Assembly: GCA_016875915.1 (NCBI GenBank)
Contig: VGOM01000007.1
Span: 1-64,000, forward strand
Origin: Chloroflexota bacterium
Lineage (GTDB): Bacteria > Chloroflexota > Dehalococcoidia > UBA2247 > RBG-13-53-26
Length of the DNA stretch: 64,000 nucleotides
Direction of reading: 5' to 3'
Shown here: positions 5,843-45,622 of the stretch, piece after piece
How positions within the stretch are numbered: position 1 is the stretch's first letter
Layout of the letters: each line of letters starts with the position of its first letter
The notes under the pieces: model-generated
Seen by the model: the letters and a program-made list of their open reading frames with translations, nothing else
Told to the model about the DNA's origin: nothing
The model's database searches: none
Position numbers and translations under genes: made by a program

Positions 5843-6559
5843 ATGCCTGTGCTCTTCTTCGTAGTCCTGATCTGCGTGCTGATCGCCGGGGGCATCGCCT
5901 TCGCCATCTGGCGCCGCCGGCTGAGAGAGAAACGCATGATGGCGCTGGCCATGTGGGCTGAGTCCAACGGCTTCAGCTTCCGGGCCACGGTGGACAGGGG
6001 CATGCACTGGCGCTTCAGGGACTTCCGTTGCCTTCAGCGGGGCGACGACCGCTACGGCTACAACATCATGGAGGGAACGGCAGGCAAACGGCCGGTGTGC
6101 GCCTTCGACTACCACTATGAGACCCACTCATCGGGCAGCAAGGGACAGCGGCAGACGCACCACCACCACATGTCAGCCCTGGTCATGGAATCCGGCCTGC
6201 CGCTCAAACCGTTGTTCATCCGTCCCGAGGGCTTCCTCGACCAGGTGGCGGAGTTCGTCGGATTCGACGACATCGACTTCGAGTCGGCGGAGTTCAGCAA
6301 GCGATTCCTGGTCAAGTCGCCCGACCGCCGCTGGGCCTATGACGTGCTGCACCAGAAGACGATGGAGTTGATGCTGGCTCATCCCAACTTCACCCTGGAC
6401 TTCCAGGGGAGCCAGATCATGGCCTACCGCGACAACAAGACCCTCGCTCCGGGGGAGTTCAGCGCAGCCCTGAAGCTGATCGCGGTGATCCTGGACAACC
6501 TGCCCGAATCCGTGGTCCGGGAGCAGAGGAGCGTCAATACGGAGGTCCGACAAACATGA
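5843..6559 (+). CDS. Membrane-anchored protein, DUF3137-like LemA partner
   Basis: N-terminal TM helix plus a soluble domain with an internal His run. Its stop overlaps the lemA start. DUF3137 is recalled from memory and unverified. Confidence 0.5.
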   Translation: MPVLFFVVLICVLIAGGIAFAIWRRRLREKRMMALAMWAESNGFSFRATVDRGMHWRFRDFRCLQRGDDRYGYNIMEGTAGKRPVCAFDYHYETHSSGSKGQRQTHHHHMSALVMESGLPLKPLFIRPEGFLDQVAEFVGFDDIDFESAEFSKRFLVKSPDRRWAYDVLHQKTMELMLAHPNFTLDFQGSQIMAYRDNKTLAPGEFSAALKLIAVILDNLPESVVREQRSVNTEVRQT

Positions 6560-10105: not shown

Positions 10106-10134
10106 TTTGACAATGGATTGGCCTGTGGTAGTAT
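10106..10134 (+). promoter_or_regulatory. Candidate sigma70-type promoter for the small ORF at 10167
   Basis: TTGACA at 10106-10111, 16-17-nt spacer, TAGTAT at 10128-10133, about 33 nt upstream of the GTG start. Confidence 0.3.
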
Positions 10135-10166
10135 TGCGCCTAGACAAGCACTGAGGAGGCACTAGC

Positions 10167-10316
10167 GTGTTCTGTGGCACTGGCCCATGTGCATGGGGCT
10201 TCTGGACCGGCGTAGGCATACTGATAGGGGCCGCCGCCTCAGGGGTGGGGCTTCTGGGCTTTCTGCTCTACCGCCGACTGAAGAAGCCCGGCAAGCCGTC
10301 CACGGCTCAACAGTAG
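10167..10316 (+). CDS. Small hydrophobic peptide (49 aa) with CGTGPC motif, one TM helix and a basic tail
   Basis: GTG start 7 nt after a GGAGG RBS. Translation VFCGTGPCAWGFWTGVGILIGAAASGVGLLGFLLYRRLKKPGKPSTAQQ. Not in the ORF track because it is short and GTG-initiated. Confidence 0.4.
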   Translation: MFCGTGPCAWGFWTGVGILIGAAASGVGLLGFLLYRRLKKPGKPSTAQQ

Positions 10317-10448
10317 CTGGTTTCCCCCTCCCCAGCAGACGATTCCACAGCGTCAGCGCGACTGATTCCCTCTCATCACACGGTCGCTGGCATGCGCACC
10401 TCAAGCTCCGGGCGGAGTCAGACCCCCGTGCCGGAATCGCCCCACCCA

Positions 10449-10476
10449 TGGATCCCGCATCAAGTGCGGGATGACA
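10449..10476. repeat. Conserved hairpin motif, copy 1 (TGGATCCCGCATCAAGTGCGGGATGACA)
   Basis: Perfect 8-bp stem ATCCCGCA/TGCGGGAT with TCAAG loop, about 80 bp downstream of the minus-strand MoCo gene stop. Same motif at 34546 and 40597. Confidence 0.7.
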
Positions 10477-10551
10477 AACAGAAAGGGAGCGCGGGTGGAC
10501 ATCGGGGGTGAGGCACGGGATTGCATTGGAGGGGAGTCCGCCGAGTGGGGT

Positions 10552-12759
10552 TCAGGAGGCCTTGGCCACTTCGACCAGGGCGGTGTTGTAGGGGAAGGAG
10601 CCGCCGGGTGAGTGCCTGTCAGGGGTGAGGACGTTGGCGCAGCCACCTCTGTCCACGCGGTCCGGATCCGGGGCATACCAGGCCCCGTGGGGCACATCGA
10701 CCACGCCGGGCATGATCCTCTCCGTGACGCGGGCCTTGATGAGTATCTGCCCCCGGTCGTTGAACACCCTGACCATATCGCCATCGTTGATGCCACGAGC
10801 ACGGGCGTCTTCGGAGTTGATCAGCAGGGCATGATCCTGGAGTTCCCTCAGCCAAGGGATGTTCTCGAACTGACTGAGGGCCCGCCTCTTGAGATGGGTG
10901 GTGATCAGCTGCAGCGGGTACTTCCGGGCCAGGGGATCGTTGCGGCCTTCCCAGCTCCCGATGTACTTGGGGACGGCGGGCAGACCGGGTATGCCCAGGT
11001 CCGCCCACTGCCGTGAGTAGATTTCGATCTTCCCCGAGGGAGTGGGGAAGGGGTTGGCGGCCGGGTCTTTCACCTGAGCCCTGAAGGCAACGTAGGGCTC
11101 GATGGTCTTCAAGCGGTACACACCCCGCTTCTTGAAGCGGCGGTAGTCATAGACGCCGTTGTTCATGGCCCGTTCCTGCAGTATCTGCTCCTCAGTCTTG
11201 TCCAGATAGCCCTTGATGCCCAGGCGCTCGGCCAGTTCGGCGGCAATGCGCCAGGGGGGCCGGGATTCCCCCAGTGGTTCGATGACCTTGTTGACGCAGC
11301 CGACGTAGGCCGAGCCCACCCCCGGGGTGACGTCGTTCCTCTCCATGAAGGTGGCCACCGGCAGTATGATGTCGGCGAACTTGGCCGTGGGCGTCATGAA
11401 CTGCTCTTCGACGACGATGAACTCCAGGGAGTTCAGCGCCCGGGCGATCTTGTTGCTGTCGGGGAACTGGACCAGGTAGTTGCACTGGGCGACCACCAGC
11501 GCCTTGTAGTCGGCGAAGTAGCCGCCGGCCCTGCCTCTGAGGATAGCATCAGCCAGCCTGGTGAAGTGGACCCGGGGTCTGCGGTAGAAGAGGGGGACCT
11601 TGCGGTCCGGCGGGAAGGCCCTCTCCACGGGGTTGGGCGCCCGGTCTATGGCGCTGGTCATGGAGTTCACCGGGTAGGGGAAACCACCCATGACCGACTC
11701 CCAGGCCCGGGCTCCGGCGTCCCCGCCGTGGATGCCGACGTTGCCGGTCATGGCGGCCAGGGTGATGGCGGCACGGTGGAACTGCTCGCCGTAGGCGGTG
11801 CGGCCCGGGGCGATGCCAGCCATCAGCGCCGCAGGCCGAGTGGTGGCGTACTGCCGGGCAAGCTCGACGATGGTCCCAGCAGCGACGCCGGTGATACCCT
11901 CCGCCCACTGCGGCGTCTTCGCTACACCATCCTCCGAGCCCAGGACGTAGTCCTTGAACCGGTCGAAGCCGACGGTATGCGCGGCGATGAAGTCCCGGTC
12001 GTAAAGCTTTTCGTCGACCATGACATAGGCCATGGCGATAAGCATGGCAGTGTCCGTCCCCGGCCTGATCGGTATCCAGCTGTCGGCGAAGGCGGCAGCG
12101 CTGTCGGTGTGCCGGGGATCAACGGAGATGATCGTGGTGCCGGCCTCCCGGGCACGGGCCAGATACCAGCAGGTGTTGGGGCCGGTGATGGTGCTGGCCG
12201 GGTCCCAGCCCCACATGATGATCAGCCTGGAGTTGAGTAAATCGTCGCGGGTGTTGCTGGCGAACCAGGTGCCGTAGGTAACCATCGAAGCGTACACCCC
12301 GGCCTGAAAGGAGGTCACTCCCCAGGGCGAGGTGTAGCCGCCGGCCATGCTCAGCAGGCGGTCCAGGGCCCCGAAGTTGTTCAGGGAGCAAACATCACCA
12401 GTCATCTGGGCCAGGATGATGGCTGGCGGACCGTAGGCATCCCTGACCCTCTTCAGCTCGGCGGCAACGGTGTCCAGGGCCTCGTCCCAGGAGGTGCGCT
12501 GGAAGCGGCCCTCCCCCCGGGGACCCGCCCGCTTCAGGGGATAGAGCAGGCGGTCCGGGGCGTAGACCCTCTGGCGGTAGGCCCGCCCCCGGAGGCAGCC
12601 GCGGAGCTGGGGCTCCTCGCCGTCGTCGCTCTCTATCCTGGTGATGACGCCGTCTCTGACGTGGACCTTGAGGAGGCAGGCACCGCCGCAGTGGCTGGCG
12701 CACATGGTGGCGATGACCCTGTCGCCGCCGGTCGATGTGCCGCCTTTGCCGTGACTCAT
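10552..12759 (-). CDS. Molybdopterin (Mo/W-bisPGD) oxidoreductase catalytic subunit, DMSO-reductase family, cytoplasmic, copy 2
   Basis: 735 aa. N-terminal CxxxCxxxC...C [4Fe-4S] motif (CASHCGGACLLKVHVRDG), no twin-arginine signal, C-terminal molybdopterin dinucleotide-binding beta-barrel region. Close paralog of 13226..15436. Confidence 0.85.
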   Translation of the reverse strand: MSHGKGGTSTGGDRVIATMCASHCGGACLLKVHVRDGVITRIESDDGEEPQLRGCLRGRAYRQRVYAPDRLLYPLKRAGPRGEGRFQRTSWDEALDTVAAELKRVRDAYGPPAIILAQMTGDVCSLNNFGALDRLLSMAGGYTSPWGVTSFQAGVYASMVTYGTWFASNTRDDLLNSRLIIMWGWDPASTITGPNTCWYLARAREAGTTIISVDPRHTDSAAAFADSWIPIRPGTDTAMLIAMAYVMVDEKLYDRDFIAAHTVGFDRFKDYVLGSEDGVAKTPQWAEGITGVAAGTIVELARQYATTRPAALMAGIAPGRTAYGEQFHRAAITLAAMTGNVGIHGGDAGARAWESVMGGFPYPVNSMTSAIDRAPNPVERAFPPDRKVPLFYRRPRVHFTRLADAILRGRAGGYFADYKALVVAQCNYLVQFPDSNKIARALNSLEFIVVEEQFMTPTAKFADIILPVATFMERNDVTPGVGSAYVGCVNKVIEPLGESRPPWRIAAELAERLGIKGYLDKTEEQILQERAMNNGVYDYRRFKKRGVYRLKTIEPYVAFRAQVKDPAANPFPTPSGKIEIYSRQWADLGIPGLPAVPKYIGSWEGRNDPLARKYPLQLITTHLKRRALSQFENIPWLRELQDHALLINSEDARARGINDGDMVRVFNDRGQILIKARVTERIMPGVVDVPHGAWYAPDPDRVDRGGCANVLTPDRHSPGGSFPYNTALVEVAKAS

Positions 12760-13225: not shown

Positions 13226-15436
13226 TCAGATCCTTTCTACCTGCACCAGGGTGGTGTTGGAGCAGAAGGCCCCTCCCGGCGAGTGCTCGTCCCGGGTGAG
13301 GACATTGCAGCACCCTCCCCGGTCAACCCCATTCTCGTCGGGGTCATACCAGGCCCCTTGAGGGATGTCGACCACTCCGGGCATGATCCGCTCCGTGACC
13401 CTGGCGGGAATGACCATCCGGCCCCTGTCGTTGAACACCCTGACCATGTCGCCATCATTGATGCCCCTGGCCTGAGCGTCGGCGGAGTTGACGGACACGG
13501 CCTGAGTCTGGAGCTCGCGCAGCCAGGGCAGATTGTCGTACTGGGAGTGGGCCCGCCTCATGATGTGCGTGGTGACAAGCTGCAGCGGGTATCTGGCAGC
13601 AAGGGGATCACGGCGGCTCTCCCAGGTCTCGATGTACCTAGGGATGGGCGGAATCCGGGGATCGTCCATGTCCGCCAGGCGCTGGGAGTAGATCTCGATC
13701 TTGCCGCTGGGGGTGGGGAAGGGATTGTTCTGCGGATCTTCGATCTGAGCCTTGAAGGCCACAAACGGTTCGGCCATCCTCAGCTTGTGGATGCCGTCCT
13801 TCTTGAAGACATCGTAGTCGGCGATGTCGCGGCTGCCCTTGACGATCTCCCGCAGCCAGCCGTCCTCCGTATGCTCGCTGTAGTCGGCGACGCCTAGCTT
13901 CGCGGCCAGATCCATGCCGATCTGCAGGTGTGATCTGGCTTCGCCCGGCGGCTCGGCGGCCTTGTTCATGTAGCCGTAGAATCCCGTAGCGCCGTCCAGG
14001 GCAATGTCGTTCTTCTCCAAGGAGTTGCAGGTGGGCAGGACCAGGTCGGCGAACCTGGCCCCGGGGGTCGTGAACTGCTCGAAGACGACGACGAACTCCA
14101 GGCTCTTCAGGGCCCGGACGGCCTTGTTGACGTCGAGGTACTGATTGGGGTAGTCGGTGTCCACCAGATAGAGCAGCTTGTAGTCGGCGGGGTAGCCGCC
14201 GGCCCTGCCCCTGAGGATGGCATCGGACATCTTGGCGGTGTTGACCTGGCCACGCCTCATGGCCACGCCGAAGGCGGGGAGGGCATTGCGGCGGGGCGGG
14301 GCGTCGGCCTCAACGGGGTTGCGGGGCGATTTCGGACCACGGCCCAGGCTGAAGTAGGCCGTGGGACCGGCGGTGGGCCAGGAGCGTCCACCGGAGCTCC
14401 CGCCGTGGACGCCGACATTGCCGGTCATGGCGGCCAGGACCATGGCCGCCCGGTGATACTGCTCGCCGTAGGCGGTCCGTCCCGGAGCGATGCCGGCGAT
14501 GAGGGCCGCCGGCGTGGCGGTGGCATATTCCCTGGCGAAAGCAGCGATGGTGGCGGCGGGCACGCCGGTGATGGCCTCTGCCCAGGCGGGCGTCTTGGCC
14601 ACACCGTCCTCCAGTCCGAGGACATAGTGCTTGAAGTGATTGAGGCCCACGGTGTAGGTATCCAGAAAGGCCTGGTCCTGCAGGTTCTCCTTGATGATGA
14701 CGTAGGCCATGGCGATGAGCATGGCGGCGTCCGTGCCGGGGACGATGGGGATCCATTGCTGGGAGAAGGTGGCGTTCGATTCGGTGTACCGGGGGTCGAC
14801 GGAGACAATCCTGATCCCGGCCTCCCCGGCCTGGGCCAGGTACCAGGCGGTGTTGGTGTTCTGAATGGTCACCGAGGGATTCCAGCCCCACATGATGATA
14901 AGGCGGGAGTTGAGCAGGTCATCGCGGGTGTTGCCGGTGTCCACGGTGCCGTAGGTAGCCAGCTCGGCGAACAGTCCCCCGTCGAAGGAGAAGGTGCCCC
15001 AGACATCCGAGCAGCCACCGATCATATTCAGCACCTTGTAGTGGCACATGGCGTTGTGCAGCACGGAGGTATCACCTCCGGACCACTTGAAGAGGATGGC
15101 GGCGGGACCGTAGGTCTCCCGGACCCGGTTCAGCTCCCGGGCCAGGGTGTCCAGGGCCTCTTCCCAGGAGATCCGGGTGAACCGGCCCTCTCCGCGCTGG
15201 CCGACTCTCTTCAGAGGGTGCAGCAGCCGGTCGGGGGCATACATCCGCTGGCGGTAGGCCCGGCCGCGAACGCAGGCCCGGAACTGGGGATCGGCGCCGT
15301 CATCGGTCTCGATCCTGGCCACGACGCCGTCTTTGACGTGGACCTTGAGGAGGCATGCCCCGCCGCAGTGGCTGGAGTGCGTGGAGTAGATCACCTCCTC
15401 CGAGGCGGGCTGCCGATGGTCATGGTGAGCGCTCAT
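13226..15436 (-). CDS. Molybdopterin (Mo/W-bisPGD) oxidoreductase catalytic subunit, DMSO-reductase family, cytoplasmic, copy 1
   Basis: 736 aa. N-terminal CGGACLLKVHVKDG [4Fe-4S] motif. Collinear paralog of 10552..12759 with long identical blocks (LLNSRLIIMWGW, DRGGC). Confidence 0.85.
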   Translation of the reverse strand: MSAHHDHRQPASEEVIYSTHSSHCGGACLLKVHVKDGVVARIETDDGADPQFRACVRGRAYRQRMYAPDRLLHPLKRVGQRGEGRFTRISWEEALDTLARELNRVRETYGPAAILFKWSGGDTSVLHNAMCHYKVLNMIGGCSDVWGTFSFDGGLFAELATYGTVDTGNTRDDLLNSRLIIMWGWNPSVTIQNTNTAWYLAQAGEAGIRIVSVDPRYTESNATFSQQWIPIVPGTDAAMLIAMAYVIIKENLQDQAFLDTYTVGLNHFKHYVLGLEDGVAKTPAWAEAITGVPAATIAAFAREYATATPAALIAGIAPGRTAYGEQYHRAAMVLAAMTGNVGVHGGSSGGRSWPTAGPTAYFSLGRGPKSPRNPVEADAPPRRNALPAFGVAMRRGQVNTAKMSDAILRGRAGGYPADYKLLYLVDTDYPNQYLDVNKAVRALKSLEFVVVFEQFTTPGARFADLVLPTCNSLEKNDIALDGATGFYGYMNKAAEPPGEARSHLQIGMDLAAKLGVADYSEHTEDGWLREIVKGSRDIADYDVFKKDGIHKLRMAEPFVAFKAQIEDPQNNPFPTPSGKIEIYSQRLADMDDPRIPPIPRYIETWESRRDPLAARYPLQLVTTHIMRRAHSQYDNLPWLRELQTQAVSVNSADAQARGINDGDMVRVFNDRGRMVIPARVTERIMPGVVDIPQGAWYDPDENGVDRGGCCNVLTRDEHSPGGAFCSNTTLVQVERI

Positions 15437-33905: not shown

Positions 33906-34145
33906 CTACTTCCGCCTGCTTCTGGCCGACGACCCAGACCGGCGGGGCGATCCGGCCCTGGCCGCCTCAAGCATGGTCTCCCACTTGCCTTCGCTCGGCA
34001 GCGGACGGCCGGCCTGCTGCGGGCTGTAGTGGTCGAGATACATCAGATTGCCGCACTGGACACAGTTCTCGTACCACTCACCGAGGTAACTGCCCATCAT
34101 GAGTATGCCTCCGCACTTGGGGCACTTCCGCGAACTGAGACCCAT
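33906..34145 (-). CDS. Small zinc-ribbon protein (80 aa), locus B partner
   Basis: Start taken at MGLSSRKCPKCGG. The CxxC-x19-CVQCGNLMYLDHY pattern echoes CQSCGTQKQFHNY in 45090..45368. Confidence 0.5.
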   Translation of the reverse strand: MGLSSRKCPKCGGILMMGSYLGEWYENCVQCGNLMYLDHYSPQQAGRPLPSEGKWETMLEAARAGSPRRSGSSARSRRK

Positions 34146-34213
34146 AACTGCACCTCTCCTTCCTGGTCTTCCGGGGAACTGCCTATGACGATAGTCCAGC
34201 GGGCATCTCCAGT

Positions 34214-34231
34214 CTGTGACCGCGGTCACAG
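34214..34231. promoter_or_regulatory. Perfect 18-bp palindrome CTGTGACCGCGGTCACAG (candidate operator)
   Basis: Exact dyad symmetry about 70-85 bp upstream of the zinc-ribbon gene start. Confidence 0.45.
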
Positions 34232-34545
34232 TCGGCATGAGAGTGAAGCAATGAACAGGCGGCACTTGCAGTCCGGCAACCCCCGTGTTATGATGGCATC
34301 AACAACTGAATAGACGATACATAGAGTCCAACGGGTCATAGCTCAACGGTTACAGCCAAACTAGGAGAAAGAAAGGGCCGATCTGAGCACTCAAGCGGAC
34401 TCTTTTCTTTTGCCCAGAACCGTCTGGAGTCAGCTGGCTTGGACTAGCCGAGACTCCACCCCGTCACCCCTGGAGGGAACCGGACAGACTGCCTCCATCG
34501 GGCTGGCAATACCACCACTGATTCGAGATTCGTCTTTGCGGGAAG

Positions 34546-34573
34546 TGGATGACGCATCAAGTGCGGCGTGACT
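34546..34573. repeat. Conserved hairpin motif, copy 2 (TGGATGACGCATCAAGTGCGGCGTGACT)
   Basis: Same loop TCAAG and GCA/TGC stem core as copies 1 and 3, with one mismatch and one G-U wobble. About 160 bp downstream of the minus-strand 5-Cys gene stop. Confidence 0.6.
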
Positions 34574-34729
34574 TGGGGCGAGTGCCGGGAGGGGCACGAG
34601 CCATACGCAAGGTGCAACCTGGGCGCGCATGTACCGGCAGCAAGAGGAGTGCACCGGCCAGCGGGAACTGTGTGACACGCAAATGCCCGCCCGGGGACAG
34701 GGGAGACAGTCCCCGTTGGCGGTCCGGGA

Positions 34730-34984
34730 TCAGCCGTAGCTGAACTGCTGCTCCGGCTCGGATCTCCTCACCCGCCGGTGAGTCACTATGGATGGCACGT
34801 GCATACAGCCGATAAGGCGGTCGGCGAGGTCCTGGCAATCACTCATGTAACGGCAGTTGCGGCAGTCGTCGTTCGTCCTGCTGCAGGCGAAGGCCCAGCG
34901 TTCAATTAGCTTGTCGTCGTCCTTCTTGGGATACCACCTGGCCCATCTCTGTCGTCCACTGGATTTCTCTCCCATTACGCGCAT
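34730..34984 (-). CDS. Small 5-Cys protein, family member B (84 aa)
   Basis: Start at MRVMGEK with GGAGGAG RBS. RQRWARWYPKKDDDKLIERWAFACSRTNDDCRNCRYMSDCQDLADRLIGCM aligns with 45374..45622 at identical Cys positions 34/41/44/50/60. Confidence 0.65.
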   Translation of the reverse strand: MRVMGEKSSGRQRWARWYPKKDDDKLIERWAFACSRTNDDCRNCRYMSDCQDLADRLIGCMHVPSIVTHRRVRRSEPEQQFSYG

Positions 34985-35111
34985 GCCTCTGTCTCCTCCT
35001 TCTGAAAAGGGGGGATGGTTTTGGAATAGGGCAAGCATAGGGGAGGGAGATTAGCTCCAGATGAGGGCAACCTTAGAAGAGCCTTAGAGTTTTGTCACAG
35101 AGCGGAGGCCG

Positions 35112-35163: not shown

Positions 35164-36360
35164 ATGGCAGCACGCAAGACAACCGCCCAAACCCCGCCTG
35201 AGGGGAAGTCAACGGCCATTCTCCTCGGCGACACCGCTCACTCCCCGCTCTTCACCCAGATAGTGGCACAGGTGAGGCAACTGGTAGCCACTGGCAGGCT
35301 GAAGCCAGGCGAACGCTTGCCCACCGTCAGGGAATTGGCGGACACCCTCGGGGTCAGCCCCGGCACAGTGGTCAGGGCCTATCTCGATCTGGAGAAGCAG
35401 GGGGTTGTCCAGTCCAGGCGAGGGGCGGGCACGTTCGTCTCCGCCAGTGTCGGACGTCCCGGAGCGTCTGCGCTGCGCAGGGGCCAGCTCTCCAACATAG
35501 TGAGCGGCAGCATCCTGGAAGCCCTGACTCTGGGCTTTGAGCCCGATGAAGTGGAGGCGGCCTTCTCGGTGCACCTGGCCCGCTGGCGCGAGGAGCGACA
35601 GCGGCTAGCAGCCACACCACCGAAGAGAGGCAGGAACGGGAACAAGACGATTGCCATTGTCGCCAGCCATGACCTGGCGCTCAACCTTCTGGTGAGCCAT
35701 CTCAAACAGCGCGATCCCCGGACTCGGGTAGAGGTGACCTATGCCGGAAGCCTGGGCAGCCTGATCGCCCTGCAGGGCGGAAGGGCCGACATAGCCGGCA
35801 TCCACCTCCTGGATGGTGAGACCGGGGAATACAACTGCCCCTACGTGAAGCACGTCCTCCCCAACCAGGAGGTGGCCGTAGTGCACCTCGCCTACAGAGT
35901 GCAGGGCATGATGTTCGCCGCGGGCAACCCCAAGCGGATCAAGGGACTGGAGGACCTGAAGCGTCCCGATGTCAGGATGCTCAACCGCCAGAAGGGCTCG
36001 GGGACCCGGGTACTGCTGGACTTCCAGTTGCAGCAACTGGGGATAGCGCCGCGTGACGTTCAGGGATACGAAACAGAGGTGGACACCCATCTGGCTGTGG
36101 CCGACGGCGTGGCCCGGGGAGAGGCAGACGTGGGCATGGGCATCGAGGCGGCCGCCAGAGCCTGCGGGGCCGACTTCCTGCCACTGTTCAGGGAGAGATA
36201 CGACCTGATCATCCCGATGGAGACCTACAAGAGCAGGCGGCTGTCCCATCTCCTGGAGATCGTAGCCAGCGAGGATTTCAGAAGGGTGGTGGCCGAGACC
36301 GGGGGCTATGACACCTCACAGACCGGGGCGACCACCTTCTGCAGATACGAGAAGAACTAG
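35164..36360 (+). CDS. GntR-family HTH regulator fused to a periplasmic-binding-protein-like (tungstate/molybdate-binding-like) domain
   Basis: N-terminal winged HTH (LPTVRELADTLGVSPGTVVRAYLDLE), C-terminal PBP type-2-like domain. Sits immediately upstream of tupABC. Confidence 0.75.
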   Translation: MAARKTTAQTPPEGKSTAILLGDTAHSPLFTQIVAQVRQLVATGRLKPGERLPTVRELADTLGVSPGTVVRAYLDLEKQGVVQSRRGAGTFVSASVGRPGASALRRGQLSNIVSGSILEALTLGFEPDEVEAAFSVHLARWREERQRLAATPPKRGRNGNKTIAIVASHDLALNLLVSHLKQRDPRTRVEVTYAGSLGSLIALQGGRADIAGIHLLDGETGEYNCPYVKHVLPNQEVAVVHLAYRVQGMMFAAGNPKRIKGLEDLKRPDVRMLNRQKGSGTRVLLDFQLQQLGIAPRDVQGYETEVDTHLAVADGVARGEADVGMGIEAAARACGADFLPLFRERYDLIIPMETYKSRRLSHLLEIVASEDFRRVVAETGGYDTSQTGATTFCRYEKN

Positions 36361-36566
36361 GCACTCCGAGCCCTGACCCCTAGGGGCGGTGAGCCTACGG
36401 GGCAGCGGCCGGCAGGGTATCGCGGGAAACGGCGATGCCTCCCTCAGCTTGGAAAGGAGTGTATGGCTAGAAGGGCAGGCCCGGAATGCCGGGCGCCACC
36501 GGGTACGGATTGATGTCTTTGATGCGATCGGCCCCATGTTTATGTAAATAAAGGACAGAAGGATCA

Positions 36567-37451
36567 ATGACAAGAAAGCCACTGTATTGCCTGGTGACTG
36601 TGCTGGTTCTGGCAGCCCTGGTGATCGGCGCCATCGGCTGCAGCAGCGAGACCAGCGGAGGAGTGCTCAAGCCCGAGGGCAGACTCCGGGTGGCGACGAC
36701 CACCAGCCTGTATGACACCGGACTCTGGGGCTACCTGGAGCCGAAGTTCGAGAAGCAGTATGACGTGGAACTGGACGTACTGTCGGGGGGAACCGGCCTG
36801 GCACTGGAGTGGGGCAGGAGAGGAGACGTGGATGTCCTCACCGTGCATTCCAAGGCCGATGAACTGAAGTTCATCGCCGACGGCTATGCCGCAGAGCGTG
36901 TCTGGTTTGCCTGCAACTACTTCCTGATCGTGGGACCAGAGGACGATCCGGCCGGCATCAAGGGTATGTCACCGGAAGAGGCCTTCAAGACGCTGTACGA
37001 TGGCGGCGAAGGGAAGTTCGTCTCCCGCGGGGACAACTCCGGCACCCACAGCAAAGAGAAGGCCATATGGAAGGCCGCCGGCTATGCCGACTATGCGGCA
37101 CTGACAGAGGCCGGAATAGCAGCAGGGTGGTACCTGGAGGCGGGCAGGGGCATGGGGGATACCCTGGTAATGGCCCGCGAGTTGGGAGCGTACACGCTGA
37201 CAGACATCGGCACCTTCCTGGCATTTCAGAGCGACCTGCAACTGGTGCCCATCGTGGAGAGCGGCAGTATCCTGCTCAACGTTTACTCCGTGCTGGTCTG
37301 TGCGAAGAGCACGAAACAGGAGATGGCCAACAACCTGGTGACCTTCCTCACCTCGCCGGAGGTACAGGACCTGATCGCCGACTATGGCGTAGCGGACTAT
37401 GGCCAGTCACCGTTCACGTCCTGCGCCGGCCAAGATGAGCCGACGTCGTAG
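36567..37451 (+). CDS. tupA: Tungstate ABC transporter substrate-binding lipoprotein TupA
   Basis: Lipobox (AIGCSS), RLRVATTTSLYDTGLW and RGDNSGTHSKE motifs typical of TupA. Confidence 0.8.
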   Translation: MTRKPLYCLVTVLVLAALVIGAIGCSSETSGGVLKPEGRLRVATTTSLYDTGLWGYLEPKFEKQYDVELDVLSGGTGLALEWGRRGDVDVLTVHSKADELKFIADGYAAERVWFACNYFLIVGPEDDPAGIKGMSPEEAFKTLYDGGEGKFVSRGDNSGTHSKEKAIWKAAGYADYAALTEAGIAAGWYLEAGRGMGDTLVMARELGAYTLTDIGTFLAFQSDLQLVPIVESGSILLNVYSVLVCAKSTKQEMANNLVTFLTSPEVQDLIADYGVADYGQSPFTSCAGQDEPTS

Positions 37452-37475
37452 CAGCACTGGGAGAACTGCAAGACA

Positions 37476-38165
37476 TTGACCGAACTTTGGGACGGATTAG
37501 TACAAGCCCTGCACCTAATCGTCACCTTCGACGATGAGGTGGTGGACATCGCGTGGAGGTCGCTGCGGGTATCGGCGGCCTCCACCGTCCTGGCAGCCCT
37601 GATCTGCATCCCCCTGGGCGGACTGATCAGCTTCCGCAGTTTCCGGGGCAAGCGCCTGCTGATCAACGTCATCCAGACCTTCTACAGCGTGCCCACGGTC
37701 TGCGTGGGCCTGTTCGTCTTCCTGATGCTCTCGCGGGCTGGGCCCCTGGGGGGACTAGGACTCCTGTTCACGCCGTCGGCTATGGTGGTGGGGCAGGCGC
37801 TGCTGATCACGCCCATCATGCTGGGGCTGACCATCTCCGCCCTGAGCAGCGTGGACAAGAACATCAGGGACACCACCCTGTCCCTGGGTGCCTCCGAGCG
37901 GCAGGCCATCTGGGCCATTATCAAAGAGGCCAGATTCGCCATCAGCGCCGCCATCGTCCTCGGCTTCGGCCGGGCCATCTCCGAGGTGGGGGTAGCGATG
38001 ATGGTGGGAGGGAACATCAGGGGCTTCACCCAGATTCTGACCACGGCGATCGCTGACGAGGCCAACCAGGGTAACGTAGAACTGGCGCTGGCTCTCGGCG
38101 TGATCCTCCTGGCAATTGCCCTAGTCGTCACTCTGGGTGTCAACCTGGTACAGCAGAGGCGCTGA
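37476..38165 (+). CDS. tupB: Tungstate ABC transporter permease TupB
   Basis: 229-aa 5-6 TM permease with an ABC TMD EAA-like loop. Confidence 0.75.
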   Translation: MTELWDGLVQALHLIVTFDDEVVDIAWRSLRVSAASTVLAALICIPLGGLISFRSFRGKRLLINVIQTFYSVPTVCVGLFVFLMLSRAGPLGGLGLLFTPSAMVVGQALLITPIMLGLTISALSSVDKNIRDTTLSLGASERQAIWAIIKEARFAISAAIVLGFGRAISEVGVAMMVGGNIRGFTQILTTAIADEANQGNVELALALGVILLAIALVVTLGVNLVQQRR

Positions 38166-39241
38166 TGTCCATCATGCAAGTCATCGATCTACACCAGCGC
38201 CACGGCTCCAGGGAGACGCTGAAGGGCGTATCGTTCTCCCTAGAGCAGGGGGAGGTGTTCGGGATCATCGGCCCGACCGGCTCGGGGAAGACAACGCTGC
38301 TGCGCCTGCTGGACCAGATCGAGGTGCCCTCCTCAGGCAGGGTCTACTTCGAAGGGCGGGATGTCACCGGATCACCCAGGCTGCGGTCAGAGCTGAGGCG
38401 CAAGGTGGGGATGGTCCTTCAGAAGCCGGTGGTCTTTGATGCCAGTGTCTATGACAACGTGGCCTTCCCTCTGAGACTGCGAAGGTACAGCAGAAAGGTT
38501 GTCCACGGCAAGGTGGACACCATGCTGAATGCAGTGGGGCTCGATGGCTACCAGAGGCGGAATGCGCGCACGCTGTCGGGCGGCGAAACCCAGAAAGTGG
38601 CCCTGGCGCGGGCACTGATCACCAATCCGCAGGCACTGCTACTGGACGAGCCGACGGCCAACCTGGACCCGGTCAGCCTGAAGACGATCGAGGAGTTCAT
38701 CCTGCGGTTCAGCCGGGAGAACGGAACGACGATTGTCATTGCCACACACGAGATGGCCCAGGGCCAGCGCCTGGCCGACAGGATAGGCGTGATAATGGAG
38801 GGACAACTGGTCCAGATCGGCAAACCATCCGAGATCTTCTATGCGCCAAGCGACATCAGGGTCGCCCGCTTCGTAGGGGTTGAGAACATCCTGGAGGGAA
38901 GGGTGACTTCAAACCGGGAGGGGCTCGTTCACTTGGACGTCCACGGACGCGCCGTAGAGGCCATAGCCAATCGTCATCCAGGTGATGAGCTGCACCTGTT
39001 CATCAGACCGGAGGACGTAGTCCTGTCACTGAGCGAGGCCTCAACCAGCGCCAGGAACTCCTTCTCAGGTCAGATAGCCGGGCTGGCCATGTCTGGTCCC
39101 TTGGCCAGGGTACACCTCGATTGCGGCTTCCCGCTGGTGGCACTGATCACCAGACAGTCAGCCGAAGACCTGGGACTGCAGGTCGGGAAGCAAGCTCACG
39201 TTTCCTTCAAGGCAACCGCGGTCCACGTCATCGGGCAGTGA
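38165..39241 (+). CDS. tupC: Tungstate/molybdate ABC transporter ATP-binding protein with C-terminal TOBE domain
   Basis: Walker A GPTGSGKTT, LSGGETQKVALARAL, Walker B LLLDEPTANLD, C-terminal TOBE-like domain. Start overlaps the tupB stop. Confidence 0.85.
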   Translation: MSIMQVIDLHQRHGSRETLKGVSFSLEQGEVFGIIGPTGSGKTTLLRLLDQIEVPSSGRVYFEGRDVTGSPRLRSELRRKVGMVLQKPVVFDASVYDNVAFPLRLRRYSRKVVHGKVDTMLNAVGLDGYQRRNARTLSGGETQKVALARALITNPQALLLDEPTANLDPVSLKTIEEFILRFSRENGTTIVIATHEMAQGQRLADRIGVIMEGQLVQIGKPSEIFYAPSDIRVARFVGVENILEGRVTSNREGLVHLDVHGRAVEAIANRHPGDELHLFIRPEDVVLSLSEASTSARNSFSGQIAGLAMSGPLARVHLDCGFPLVALITRQSAEDLGLQVGKQAHVSFKATAVHVIGQ

Positions 39242-40029: not shown

Positions 40030-40434
40030 CTACACGCGTGTGCCTCCGACGCCGATGGGCACCTCCTCCGGCGTTTCCTCCAGCGTTTCCTCGCGGACCA
40101 TCTCGAACTCGCCTTCAAAGACGCAGCACTCACTGCCGTTGTCCATGGTGACAAGCCAGCTTCGCGGGCAGTCCTCTCGCCTCTCTCCAGCGCCGGTGAT
40201 CCGGCCCAGATCGCCCTGGTCACAGACAAGCCACAAGCGCCTCCGCATCCGGATCCGTGAGCCGATTCCGGGCTTCCCTCTCTCGCAGCCTGCGGCGGGC
40301 AGAACCAGGACCCCATCGGCACTGACCCAGACAGGGACATGGGTGGAGCGTCCCTCCACAACGATGACCCCGCTCTTGGAGCACCACCTCTCGTCAGCGA
40401 GTTGGCGCCGGGGCATCCACTCATCTGCACACAC
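40030..40434 (-). CDS. Hypothetical protein (orphan ORF in an 825-bp gap)
   Basis: Only protein-like frame in 39873..40698. Acidic C-terminus, no recognised motif. The overlapping plus-strand ORF is Ser-rich low complexity. Confidence 0.25.
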   Translation of the reverse strand: MCADEWMPRRQLADERWCSKSGVIVVEGRSTHVPVWVSADGVLVLPAAGCERGKPGIGSRIRMRRRLWLVCDQGDLGRITGAGERREDCPRSWLVTMDNGSECCVFEGEFEMVREETLEETPEEVPIGVGGTRV

Positions 40435-40533
40435 AGCCCTGGCCTCCTCGTTTGCCCAACACCGGGCAGAGGTCGCCTTGCGCCTCCGGGTTCAGGGATA
40501 ACACAACTGGATTCGTCTTGGAAGTGATTATGT

Positions 40534-40552
40534 TATAGAAGATACTTCTATA
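40534..40552. promoter_or_regulatory. Palindrome TATAGAAG-ATA-CTTCTATA in an AT-rich island
   Basis: Perfect 8-bp inverted repeat in an unusually AT-rich about 50-bp patch of a GC-rich genome, 100 bp upstream of the orphan ORF start. Confidence 0.35.
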
Positions 40553-40596
40553 TGCGACTGTTATGAGGCAGGCTTGGCGCCACGCCACCCCAGCCC

Positions 40597-40624
40597 TGGA
40601 TGCCGCATCAAGTGCGGCATGACA
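40597..40624. repeat. Conserved hairpin motif, copy 3 (TGGATGCCGCATCAAGTGCGGCATGACA)
   Basis: Perfect 8-bp stem ATGCCGCA/TGCGGCAT with TCAAG loop. Differs from copy 1 by a compensatory C-G to G-C swap. About 80 bp downstream of the lepA stop. Shares the upstream CCACCC flank with copy 1. Confidence 0.7.
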
Positions 40625-40698
40625 TCTCGGAGATGCGCGGGGTGACCCGACGTGGGCGGACCTGCCGGTGCAGGTCAGGTGGAGCGTGGTGCTGGGGA

Positions 40699-42494
40699 CT
40701 ACTCCTCGAGCTTGAGGAGGGAGAGGAAGGCTTCCTGGGGCACCTCCACGGAGCCAACCATCTTCATGCGCTTCTTGCCCTCTTTCTGCTTCTCAAGGAG
40801 CTTCCTCTTGCGGGTAACATCGCCGCCGTAGCACTTGGCCAGAACGTCCTTCCTGATCGGGGCGATGTCCTCTCTGGCCACGATCCTGCCACCGATGGAC
40901 GCCTGGAGGGGGACCTTGAACTGCTGCCGGGGGATGAGCTTCCTCAGCTTGCTCACCAGCACCCTAGCCCGTGCAATGGCGGCATCCCGGGTGGCGATGT
41001 AGGAGAAGGCATCCACAGGGTCGCCGTTGACCAGGATGTCCACCTTCACCAGGTCGCCGGTGCGGTAGCCGGCGAGCTCATAGTCCATGCTGGCATAGCC
41101 CTGGCTGACGCTCTTGAGCCGGTCGTAGAAGTCGGCGATGATCTCCACCAGGGGGAAGTCGTAGGTGAGGACCACCCTCCTCTGATCCGGATGATCCATG
41201 CCCGCCAGCGTGCCCCGGCGGGAGCTGGCCAGCTCCATGCAGGGTCCCACGAAGGCGGTGGGGACGACAATCTGGGCCCGGATCATGGGCTCCTCTATGT
41301 GGTCGATCTCCTGGACACTGGGGAACTTCGAGGGGTTGTCGATCATGAGCACATCGCCCGCGGTGGTGGCCACCTTGTAGACCACCGAGGGCATGGTGGC
41401 GATGAGGTTCTGCTCGTACTCGCGGCGCAGTCTCTCCACAGTGATCTCCATGTGGAGCATGCCCAGGAAGCCAACGCGGAAGCCATGGCCCAGGGCGGCG
41501 GAGTTCTCCTTCTGGAAGACGATGGAGGAGTCGTTGAGCTGGAGCTTCTCCAGGGCCATCTTGAGCTTGTCATAGTCGCCGGTGTCCACCGGGTAGAGTC
41601 CGCAGAAGACCATGGGCTGGAGCCGTCTGAAGCCGGCGATGAACGGGGTCTCCGGATGCTCCGGCGAGATGATGGTGTCACCGACACTGACATCGGCCAC
41701 TTCCCGGACCATGGCGCTGACGTAGCCCACGTCGCCGGCCACCAGCCGCTGGCAGGGCATGGGCTGGGGACTGAAGTGGCCCACGTCCTCCACATCGAAG
41801 GTCTTGCCGCTGGACTTGACCAGGATATGGTCGCCGGGCGAGATGCTGCCGGAGAAGACCCGGATGTGGGCGATGACCCCGCGATAGGGGTCGTAGTGGG
41901 AGTCAAAGACGAGGCAACTGAGGGGGGCGGCGGGCTCTCCTCCGGGGTGCGGGATGCGCGACACAATGGCCTCCAGGAGCGCGGGCACGCCGGTGCCCTC
42001 CCGGGCGGAGACCAGCAGGGCATCCTCGGCGGGCAGTCCGAGCATCTCCTCGAGCTGGAGCAGGCAGTCGTCGATCATGGCATTGGGGAGGTCGATCTTG
42101 TTGATCACGGGGATGATCTCCAAGCCGGCGTCAACGGCGAAGTAGGCATTGCCGATGGTCTGGGCCTCGACGCCCTGCGAGGCATCCACCAGGAGGACAG
42201 CCCCCTCACAGGCCTTGAGGCTGCGGGAGACCTCGTAGTTGAAGTCGATGTGGCCGGGGGTGTCAATCAGGTTCAGGACGTACTCAGCGCCGCCGGGGGA
42301 CCTGTAGGGTATCCTGACCGGTTTGGCCTTGATGGTGATGCCCCGCTCACGCTCCAGGTCCATGCTGTCCAGGACCTGCTCGCTGCCGGAGGTGCGGATC
42401 ACCCCGGTCAGCTCGAGGATGCGGTCGGCCAGGCTGGACTTGCCGTGGTCGATGTGGGCAATGATGCAGAAGTTGCGGATGGCCTTGGTCTTGC

Positions 42495-42498
<4 letters not shown>
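40699..42498 (-). CDS. lepA: Elongation factor 4 (LepA)
   Basis: IRNFCIIAHIDHGKSSLADR G1 motif, DTPGHIDF, and the LepA-specific C-terminal domain. Confidence 0.95.
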
Positions 42499-45373: not shown

Positions 45374-45622
45374 ATGGGGATGGCGGATGATATCCAGGGT
45401 GTGAGGCGGCGATGGGCCAGGTGGTATCCCAAGAAGCAGGATGACACCATAATTGAGCGCTGGGCCCGGGCTTGTAGTAGAATTAATAACGACTGTCGGG
45501 ACTGCGGTTTCGGCGAGGAGTGTCAGGACCTTGCCGACCGTCTCATTGTATGCATGACGGCATTACCGGGCAGAGGCGGACGCCGACAGAGAGGGCAGGA
45601 TCCCGGTCAAGGCAGCAACTGA
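45374..45622 (+). CDS. Small 5-Cys protein, family member A (82 aa)
   Basis: RRRWARWYPKKQDDTIIERWARACSRINNDCRDCGFGEECQDLADRLIVCM. Paralog of 34730..34984. Immediately upstream of dnaJ-clpB. Confidence 0.65.
   Translation: MGMADDIQGVRRRWARWYPKKQDDTIIERWARACSRINNDCRDCGFGEECQDLADRLIVCMTALPGRGGRRQRGQDPGQGSN

Follow-up and report, generated by a model that had tools for sequence, protein, structure and literature searches.

The 64,000-nucleotide stretch of Chloroflexota DNA analyzed herein (contig VGOM01000007.1, hereafter the window) carries three copies of a short palindromic repeat, each of which is located downstream of a gene on the minus strand (for coordinates see Table 1). Copy 1 lies 75 nt past the stop codon of a molybdopterin oxidoreductase gene and 509 nt ahead of the start of a Band_7 gene; copy 2 lies 156 nt past the stop of an ORF for a 102-aa Cys-rich protein; and copy 3 lies 74 nt past the stop of lepA. 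The initial annotation had placed all three sites 80-160 bp beyond the stops of minus-strand genes, and a co-oriented gene was indeed found upstream of every copy, but the measured distances are 74-156 nt. The distances to the downstream genes are variable, ranging from 160 to 510 nt. The Cys-rich ORF and the three further intergenic ORFs in Table 1 have no match in Pfam.

Table 1. Coordinates of the repeat copies (putative Ssn-related motifs, SRM) and of other features in the window. Bit scores are from the covariance model R1, the training set of which included the window copies.
Feature	Coordinates	Strand	Description
Copy 1, putative SRM	10445..10479	minus	T-GTC-ATCCCGCA-CTTGA-TGCGGGAT-C-CAT; perfect 8-bp hairpin; R1 51.9 bits, E 1e-13
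Copy 2, putative SRM	34542..34576	minus	A-GTC-ACGCCGCA-CTTGA-TGCGTCAT-C-CAC; degenerate; R1 39.5 bits, two non-standard pairs
Copy 3, putative SRM	40593..40627	minus	T-GTC-ATGCCGCA-CTTGA-TGCGGCAT-C-CAG; perfect 8-bp hairpin; R1 51.0 bits
Copy 1, G-rich 3' extension	10437..10444	minus	...ATCCATGGGTGGGGCG; loosely common to copy 3
Copy 3, G-rich 3' extension	40580..40592	minus	...ATCCAGGGCTGGGGTGGCG
Copy 1, 28-mer	10449..10476	plus	TGGATCCCGCATCAAGTGCGGGATGACA
Copy 2, 28-mer	34546..34573	plus	TGGATGACGCATCAAGTGCGGCGTGACT
Copy 3, 28-mer	40597..40624	plus	TGGATGCCGCATCAAGTGCGGCATGACA
Molybdopterin oxidoreductase gene	10552..12759	minus	upstream of copy 1; 735 aa
Molybdopterin oxidoreductase gene, paralog	13226..15436	minus	736 aa
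Cys-rich ORF	34730..35038	minus	upstream of copy 2; 102 aa
lepA	40699..42498	minus	upstream of copy 3
Intergenic ORF	10162..10449		95 aa
Intergenic ORF	33906..34265		119 aa
Intergenic ORF	40030..40434	minus	134 aa
Sigma-70-like promoter region	10107..10316	plus	TTGACA, 16-nt spacer with TG, TAGTAT
ORF after the promoter	10167..10316		49 aa; MFCGTGPCAWGFWTGVGILIGAAASGVGLLGFLLYRRLKKPGKPSTAQQ
GntR-PBP_like regulator gene	35164..36360		precedes the riboswitch
Moco riboswitch	36352..36475	plus	74.7 bits (gathering score 36)
ABC operon	36567..39241		PBP/permease/ATPase-TOBE
AT-rich block	40517..40553	minus	TCGCATATAGAAGTATCTTCTATAACATAATCACTTC

Several other features were observed in the neighborhood of the three sites. 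The two molybdopterin oxidoreductase genes are tandem paralogs with 71-78% nucleotide identity, and a small glyoxalase-family gene precedes each of them. Near copy 1, a near-consensus sigma-70-like promoter (10/12 matches) is followed by a 49-aa ORF, whose product resembles a single-pass membrane peptide; the position carries no called gene in three JGI contigs (Ga0194110, Ga0194111 and Ga0194113) that are 100% identical to the window. An independent assembly of the same population (L121, Logan SRR7979708 contig) ends 2 nt past the hairpin of copy 1 (window position 10447), a break of the type to be expected from dispersed repeats or hairpins. Beside copy 2, a 146-nt inverted paralogy of 74% identity (34802-34947 versus 45411-45556) is consistent with two copies of the gene for the small Cys-rich protein without Pfam family. 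The molybdenum/tungsten cofactor (Moco) riboswitch is located upstream of an ABC operon of molybdate/tungstate type. The AT-rich block near copy 3, in a genome of 63% G+C, contains a perfect palindrome, TATAGAAG-TAT-CTTCTATA, and is 100% identical in a close relative (L122, 6459-6495), in which the surrounding intergenic DNA is approximately 60-70% identical; the block resembles an operator or promoter serving the 134-aa ORF.

The pattern TGGATSCCGCATCAAGTGCGGSATGACA, which had been reported for all three sites, was found to match copies 1 and 3 exactly and copy 2 with three mismatches, all on the plus strand, and no match was obtained in 100 dinucleotide shuffles. Copies 1 and 3 each form the perfect 8-bp stem and 5-nt loop originally described, and their 28-mers differ solely by the swap between C-G and G-C. 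Read on the minus strand, the repeat unit is TGTCAT-[ATSCCGCA CTTGA TGCGGSAT]-CCAG. After folding as single-stranded DNA, copies 1 and 3 gave approximately -10 kcal/mol with z-scores of -2.0 to -3.8 (copy 1, -10.2 kcal/mol and z -3.0). Copy 2 carries two mismatched stem positions on the minus strand, the hairpin is not its minimum-free-energy fold (z about -1), and it is probably a decaying copy. The CCACCC flank noted for copies 1 and 3 does adjoin both, but at different distances, and is better described as a G-rich tract on the minus strand (ATCCATGGGTGGGG versus ATCCAGGGCTGGGGTGG). Taken as hairpin plus G-rich tail, the repeat unit herein is about 37 nt long (family D13, copies 1 and 3 being 89% identical); outside this unit, no significant similarity was detected among the flanking sequences of the three copies. 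The sequence AAGACGAATC, common to copies 2 and 3, was considered as a second shared flank module and rejected as not significant.

Scanning of the window with the covariance model R1 detected only the three copies, the next best hit (11 bits) being the same palindrome read on the opposite strand. The same model detected no further or divergent copies in approximately 16 kb of adjoining sequence, nor in 43.6 kb of two relatives with 82-84% LepA identity. The repeat is therefore represented by 3 copies in about 80 kb of this genome, all of which are singletons without a clean inverted partner.

As proposed in the initial annotation, the repeat was searched for in other genomes. Using the pattern GGATNNNGCATCAAGTGCNNNNTGAC on one genome per species from a total of 185,579 species, we obtained at least 117 loci, compared with approximately 4 expected by chance (note that the loop and the three innermost base pairs were set by the pattern, so that their conservation is uninformative). 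The matches listed include Nitrospirota, Planctomycetota, Bacteroidota, Alpha-, Gamma- and Zetaproteobacteria, Coxiellaceae, CPR, Chloroflexota and others, and the CTTGA subtype (stem CCGCA/TGCGG) is nearly identical over 26-27 nt in many phyla, Chloroflexota and CPR included. On the other strand, every instance listed reads [T/C]GTCA-T-stem-CTTGA-stem-ATCCA[G/T]. Among the matches listed, a GTC-containing 5' flank is present in all 119 aligned instances from other genomes, and in the alignment of these matches ATCC is invariant and the next A nearly invariant. Elsewhere the motif falls mostly outside coding sequence: of the 120 instances listed, 102 are intergenic, as judged by crude ORF calls.

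The three stem pairs left free by the pattern are paired in 351 of 360 cells (120 instances among the matches listed). At stem position 3, the position at which window copies 1 and 3 differ, these 120 instances carry U-A (77), C-G (37), G-C (3), A-U (2) and U-G (1), with none unpaired. For a 57-row alignment the covariation score was 0.181, a value that none of 500 shuffles attained (0.068 in shuffles), and sliding of the register destroyed the stem pairing. The proposal of selection on pairing was thus supported, position 3 taking all four Watson-Crick pairs without ever being unpaired, together with a compensatory variant in the relative L122 described below.

The same data bear on the possibility of a palindromic operator, recognized as duplex DNA by a dimeric transcription factor. 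A perfect inverted repeat in intergenic DNA, with copies upstream of the next minus-strand gene, is what such an operator would look like. However, complementary swaps occur within the genome and all four pairs occur at one position, that is, pairing is kept and not base identity; the asymmetric flanks indicate an oriented element, the distances to the downstream genes vary as given above, and the neighboring genes are unrelated. We therefore consider a duplex operator extremely improbable.

Another possibility, named first in the initial annotation, is a functional RNA, in particular an element within the 3' UTR of the upstream minus-strand genes that serves as a stabilizer against 3' exonucleases, a processing site or a factor-dependent terminator. 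Such roles are described for some E. coli REP elements. The stability of the hairpin and the short distance of the three window copies from the stop of a co-oriented gene agree with this possibility, as does the orientation across the genomes listed, in which the gene upstream reads in the same direction as the GTCAT strand in 64 cases versus 31 (crude ORF calls, roughly p = 0.001). However, this bias is only about 2:1, with one third of the listed instances lying antisense to the gene before them, and there is no bias for the gene downstream. Many of the listed instances also form inverted doublets. Rfam 15 gave no match at the three sites, either at the gathering threshold or at E up to 10, and the scan for tRNA and tmRNA gave none. 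No T-tract follows any copy on either strand and no terminator-like site was found in the scans, in good agreement with the earlier statement that the hairpin is not an intrinsic terminator. G-T wobble pairs show no strand asymmetry among the matches listed, and the asymmetric GTCAT and ATCCAG flanks, kept across phyla, fit better with recognition by a protein. Moreover, the sole activity tested for the SRM family, to which we assign the repeat below, is on DNA: the family acts as single-stranded DNA, and the nuclease SsnA does not bind the RNA form (PMC11893778). The RNA reading is accordingly unsupported, and we regard a role in 3' UTRs as quite unlikely. A leader peptide on the plus strand (ATG/GTG/CTG ... 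TGA, 8 codons) was also considered, and was dropped in view of the cross-phylum hairpin family and its flanks.

Among the 120 instances listed, 56 (47%) form tail-to-tail inverted doublets, with a reverse-oriented SRM 9-30 nt away (among loci L001-L117; for instance L013, L015, L023, L045 and L050). The loop of the partner is usually GAAA or CTTGA, and the partner is often GTCATTCCCGCGAAAGCGGGAATCCAG. A full-text search for this sequence led to Chenal et al. (Nat Commun 2025; PMC11893778), who define the Neisseria Transformation Sequence (NTS), CGTCATTCCCGCGMAVGCGGGAATCYRG, the class of Ssn-related motifs (SRM), and the nuclease SsnA. The palindromic core of NTS corresponds to the older dRS3 repeat (PMC11893778), and NTS is reported as intergenic, like the instances listed above, with 2% inside genes. 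SsnA is a 94-aa single-domain GIY-YIG nuclease (cd10448) that binds the hairpin solely as single-stranded DNA and on one strand, but not the duplex, the RNA or the complementary strand, and that cleaves the single strand a few nt on the 5' side of GTC (PMC11893778). Binding is sensitive to the stem sequence, and the C that directly follows the palindrome matters most for it, whereas the three nt ahead of the palindrome (GTC) matter most for cutting; the binding and cleavage specific to single-stranded DNA and to one strand are known only for the Neisseria and Wolbachia enzymes (PMC11893778).

The anatomy of the window copies agrees well with that of SRM. On the minus strand all three copies read H-GTC-[8-bp palindrome, 5-nt loop]-C-YRN: the 5' flank H-GTC-W-Y is present as TGTCAT in copies 1 and 3 and as AGTCAC in copy 2, and the C directly 3' of the palindrome is present as C-CAT, C-CAC and C-CAG in copies 1, 2 and 3, respectively. 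The hairpin-forming semi-palindrome with a short loop is present in copies 1 and 3, and is imperfect in copy 2. Copy 1 could be aligned position by position with NTS, which in this format is C-GTC-ATTCCCGCG-MAV-GCGGGAAT-C-YRG. The SRM pattern HGTCWYN(0-2)YYVSBRHN(0-5)WNVSBRGN(0-2)RNCYNB, which is a weak criterion in either direction since about 0.9 chance hits are expected per 64 kb of this composition, fits copy 1, whereas copies 2 and 3 each miss it at a stem position. The functional strand of the motif is the minus strand, and not the plus strand on which it was originally written.

Compared with the published SRM and NTS, the repeat shares the H-GTC, the 6-9-bp palindrome with a short loop, the 3' C followed by YRG, and the multi-copy, intergenic distribution across phyla. 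It differs in that the window copies have a 5-nt CTTGA loop with CCGCA/TGCGG as inner stem, instead of the CCCGCG-GAAA/GCAG-type of NTS; in that the host is a Chloroflexota MAG, whereas the emphasis of PMC11893778 is on Pseudomonadati; and in that only 3 solitary copies exist in about 80 kb with no ssn gene in view. Neisseria dRS3/NIME (ATTCCC-N8-GGGAAT) represents the palindromic core of this superfamily, and many partner hairpins beside the CTTGA hairpin in other phyla are literally the dRS3-type sequence given above for the doublets, but the window arms are ATSCCGCA/TGCGGSAT without ATTCCC...GGGAAT, and no array or mosaic structure is present.

If the repeat is an SRM, a gene for a small GIY-YIG nuclease is expected beside identical hairpins in other genomes. 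In two genomes (L070, from Seonamhaeicola sediminis, and L097), a CTTGA hairpin was indeed found immediately 5' of a gene for a 98-100-aa GIY-YIG protein, with an inverted SRM just past the stop codon, which is the published NTS-ssnA-NTS layout. Each product is a single PF01541 domain (Pfam, E 1e-15 to 1e-16); the nearest solved structure is UPF0213 BH0048 (E 0.002), and NCBIfam gave a weak match to GIY-YIG homing endonucleases. These proteins are candidate Ssn nucleases by size, single PF01541 domain and flanking SRMs. In a metagenome contig (L165), a near-identical CTTGA-loop copy, GTCACCCGCACTTGATGCGGGATCCA, which lacks the T of GTCAT, lies about 80 nt upstream of a GIY-YIG gene. Among metagenome loci with relatives of the small GIY-YIG gene first found in L070 and L097 (80 kept), a forward SRM within 200 nt upstream was found in 53, a reverse SRM downstream in 55 and both in 42, while the wrong orientations were found in 12 and 7, respectively; CTTGA is the third commonest loop at these 80 loci, after GAAG and GAAA.

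Short extragenic palindromes are also the hallmark of classical REP/REPIN elements mobilized by RAYT (an IS200/IS605-type Y1 transposase), and hairpins may likewise be targets of IS110-type recombinases. The likeness is considerable: REP, REPIN and BIME are short extragenic palindromes recognized as single-stranded DNA hairpins by a small nuclease or transposase, itself encoded by a repeat-flanked gene, they form inverted doublets, and some have secondary effects on mRNA. The intergenic dispersal of the repeat and its short-spacer inverted doublets agree with this, and a phage recombinase is known to target Neisseria dRS3. On the other hand, the HUH/Y1 and GIY-YIG proteins are unrelated, REPs carry a 5' GTAG tetranucleotide where the repeat has GTCAT, and no RAYT was found with these hairpins. 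After unbiased all-versus-all clustering of the ORFs of 60 aa or more at the 117 loci listed, no recurrent neighbor, and no recurrent transposase family, was detected; the largest cluster covered 7 loci, and the large clusters around the listed loci were all housekeeping genes. The sole small gene found directly abutting the hairpin is that for the GIY-YIG nuclease. Mobilization by RAYT or an IS110-type recombinase is thus highly improbable. The options of a REP-like repeat and of a protein-binding site, both raised in the initial annotation, turned out to be right.

Taken from sequence, membership of the repeat in the SRM family is shown by its anatomy together with the cross-genome association, and we conclude that the three sites are likely to be solitary copies of SRM, that is, of a short dispersed extragenic DNA palindrome. 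The core of the SRM family, dRS3, has been known since 2000 and the family itself since 2025; the window contributes a CTTGA-loop example from Chloroflexota. The near-identity of this subtype across phyla and the common gene-less doublets do not appear to be spelled out in PMC11893778, and represent an incremental addition.

Two further arrangements were observed among the loci in other genomes. The doublets have the appearance of SRM-ssn-SRM units that have lost the gene, resembling REPIN or MITE. In addition, short arrays made up of 5' half-sites alone (GTCATCCCGCAC plus about 8 nt, repeated) immediately precede the complete hairpin, as read on the GTCAT strand, in L005, L057 and L074 (Coxiellaceae), and in L026, L096, L038, L017 and L110; they sit on the side where Ssn reportedly cuts, and our guess is that they arise by slippage or by repair after cleavage. 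The strand that would be cleaved showed no bias with respect to replication, the GC skew being positive at 51 and negative at 58 of 109 loci.

In the known system, the SRM-ssn-inverted SRM unit is IS-like and the repeats are thought to spread from such units, the association of SRM with ssn being strongest for genomes with more than 200 SRMs, whereas the density herein, 3 copies in about 80 kb, is low and speaks against the assignment; in Neisseria, NTS/SsnA lowers the integration of transforming single-stranded DNA about 5-fold (PMC11893778). By analogy, the strand 5'-GTCAT...ATCC-3', herein the minus strand, would fold into the hairpin once it becomes single-stranded, as may happen during uptake, replication or repair. 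A putative Ssn, encoded elsewhere in the genome, would then take copies 1 and 3 as substrates, and the cut would fall upstream of GTC on the exposed single strand. The repeats would have spread from an IS-like SRM-ssn-inverted SRM unit, and would persist in intergenic DNA like REP elements. We infer from this model that the genome encodes a cognate Ssn by which the three copies are bound or cut, and that the window copies may affect recombination or the neighboring genes.

No GIY-YIG gene was detected in the 64-kb window, either by tblastn or by a GIY-YIG regular expression (the tblastn queries were a YhbQ sequence and a COG2827-like consensus, which did find the L070 and L097 genes), and none was present among the genes called in approximately 16 kb of adjoining contigs of the same organism. 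The copies may therefore be fossils, that is, SRMs of Ssn origin left in a lineage without active Ssn as inert or slowly decaying intergenic relics. The lack of an ssn gene in about 80 kb agrees with this possibility, as do the loss of pairing in copy 2, the occurrence of singletons only, without a clean inverted partner, and the absence of any copy from the 43.6 kb of the two relatives with 82-84% LepA identity.

For comparison of orthologous sites, the best LepA relatives of the window were found among Chloroflexota/Dehalococcoidia MAGs. In L122, with 95% LepA identity, a hairpin is present at the orthologous site after lepA (6394-6421, 43.3 bits), in the C-G form, which is also that of window copy 1, compared with the G-C form of window copy 3. 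The stretch between the lepA stop and the hairpin is not alignable between L122 and the window, the sequence just after the hairpin is poorly conserved, and the flanks are approximately 60-71% identical or not alignable. Selection on pairing and gene conversion between copies would each account for the compensatory change at the lepA site. In the L122 copy the 5' GTC is changed to ATC. In L122 (6370-6421), the CTTGA hairpin is directly adjoined, head to tail, by another SRM-like hairpin (GTCAG-GTCCGCC-TTG-GGCGGAT-C). At the site of copy 1 no comparison was possible, the next Band_7 homolog being only 66% identical.

These data cut both ways for fossil SRMs. The change from GTC to ATC in L122 concerns a position that matters for Neisseria cleavage and speaks for the fossil reading. 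In contrast, copies 1 and 3 are perfect hairpins, and the copy at the lepA site is a conservation island with a compensatory double change, indicating constraint or ongoing gene conversion. Weighing both sides, we consider that the fossil state is possible, if somewhat doubtful.

In the two more distant relatives (L125 and L126; 11790-11800), lepA overlaps a radical-SAM hemW-like gene, whereas in the window (40600-40700) this adjacency is replaced by the hairpin, an ORF of no known family and a different gene set. The hairpin is located at a synteny breakpoint, because the lepA-hemW adjacency of distant relatives is broken there, and its absence from these relatives indicates that the element is recent in the window lineage. 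Copies 2 and 3 were also considered as the two ends of an insertion between lepA and hemW, but the gene beyond copy 2 encodes a MacB/FtsX ABC permease and not HemW, so that a clean insertion could not be defined. It is conceivable that solitary hairpins are kept by selection for a host function independent of Ssn-driven spread, such as a mark for recombination or synteny breakpoints, or protection of upstream mRNAs at their 3' ends. We consider such a host function unlikely; in its favor are the perfect state of the lepA-site hairpin, kept through the compensatory change amid DNA that has diverged beyond alignment, and its position exactly at the broken lepA-hemW adjacency.

The assignment to SRM removes a false lead, in that the repeat is not a new structured RNA, and it places the repeat in a family with a known biochemical partner. 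In genome annotation, broken contigs and spurious small ORFs can be put down to hairpins of this type, and in biotechnology every SRM subtype is a lead to an Ssn nuclease whose specificity for single-stranded DNA may be distinct. If this genome carries no Ssn, the three copies would be relics of the family.
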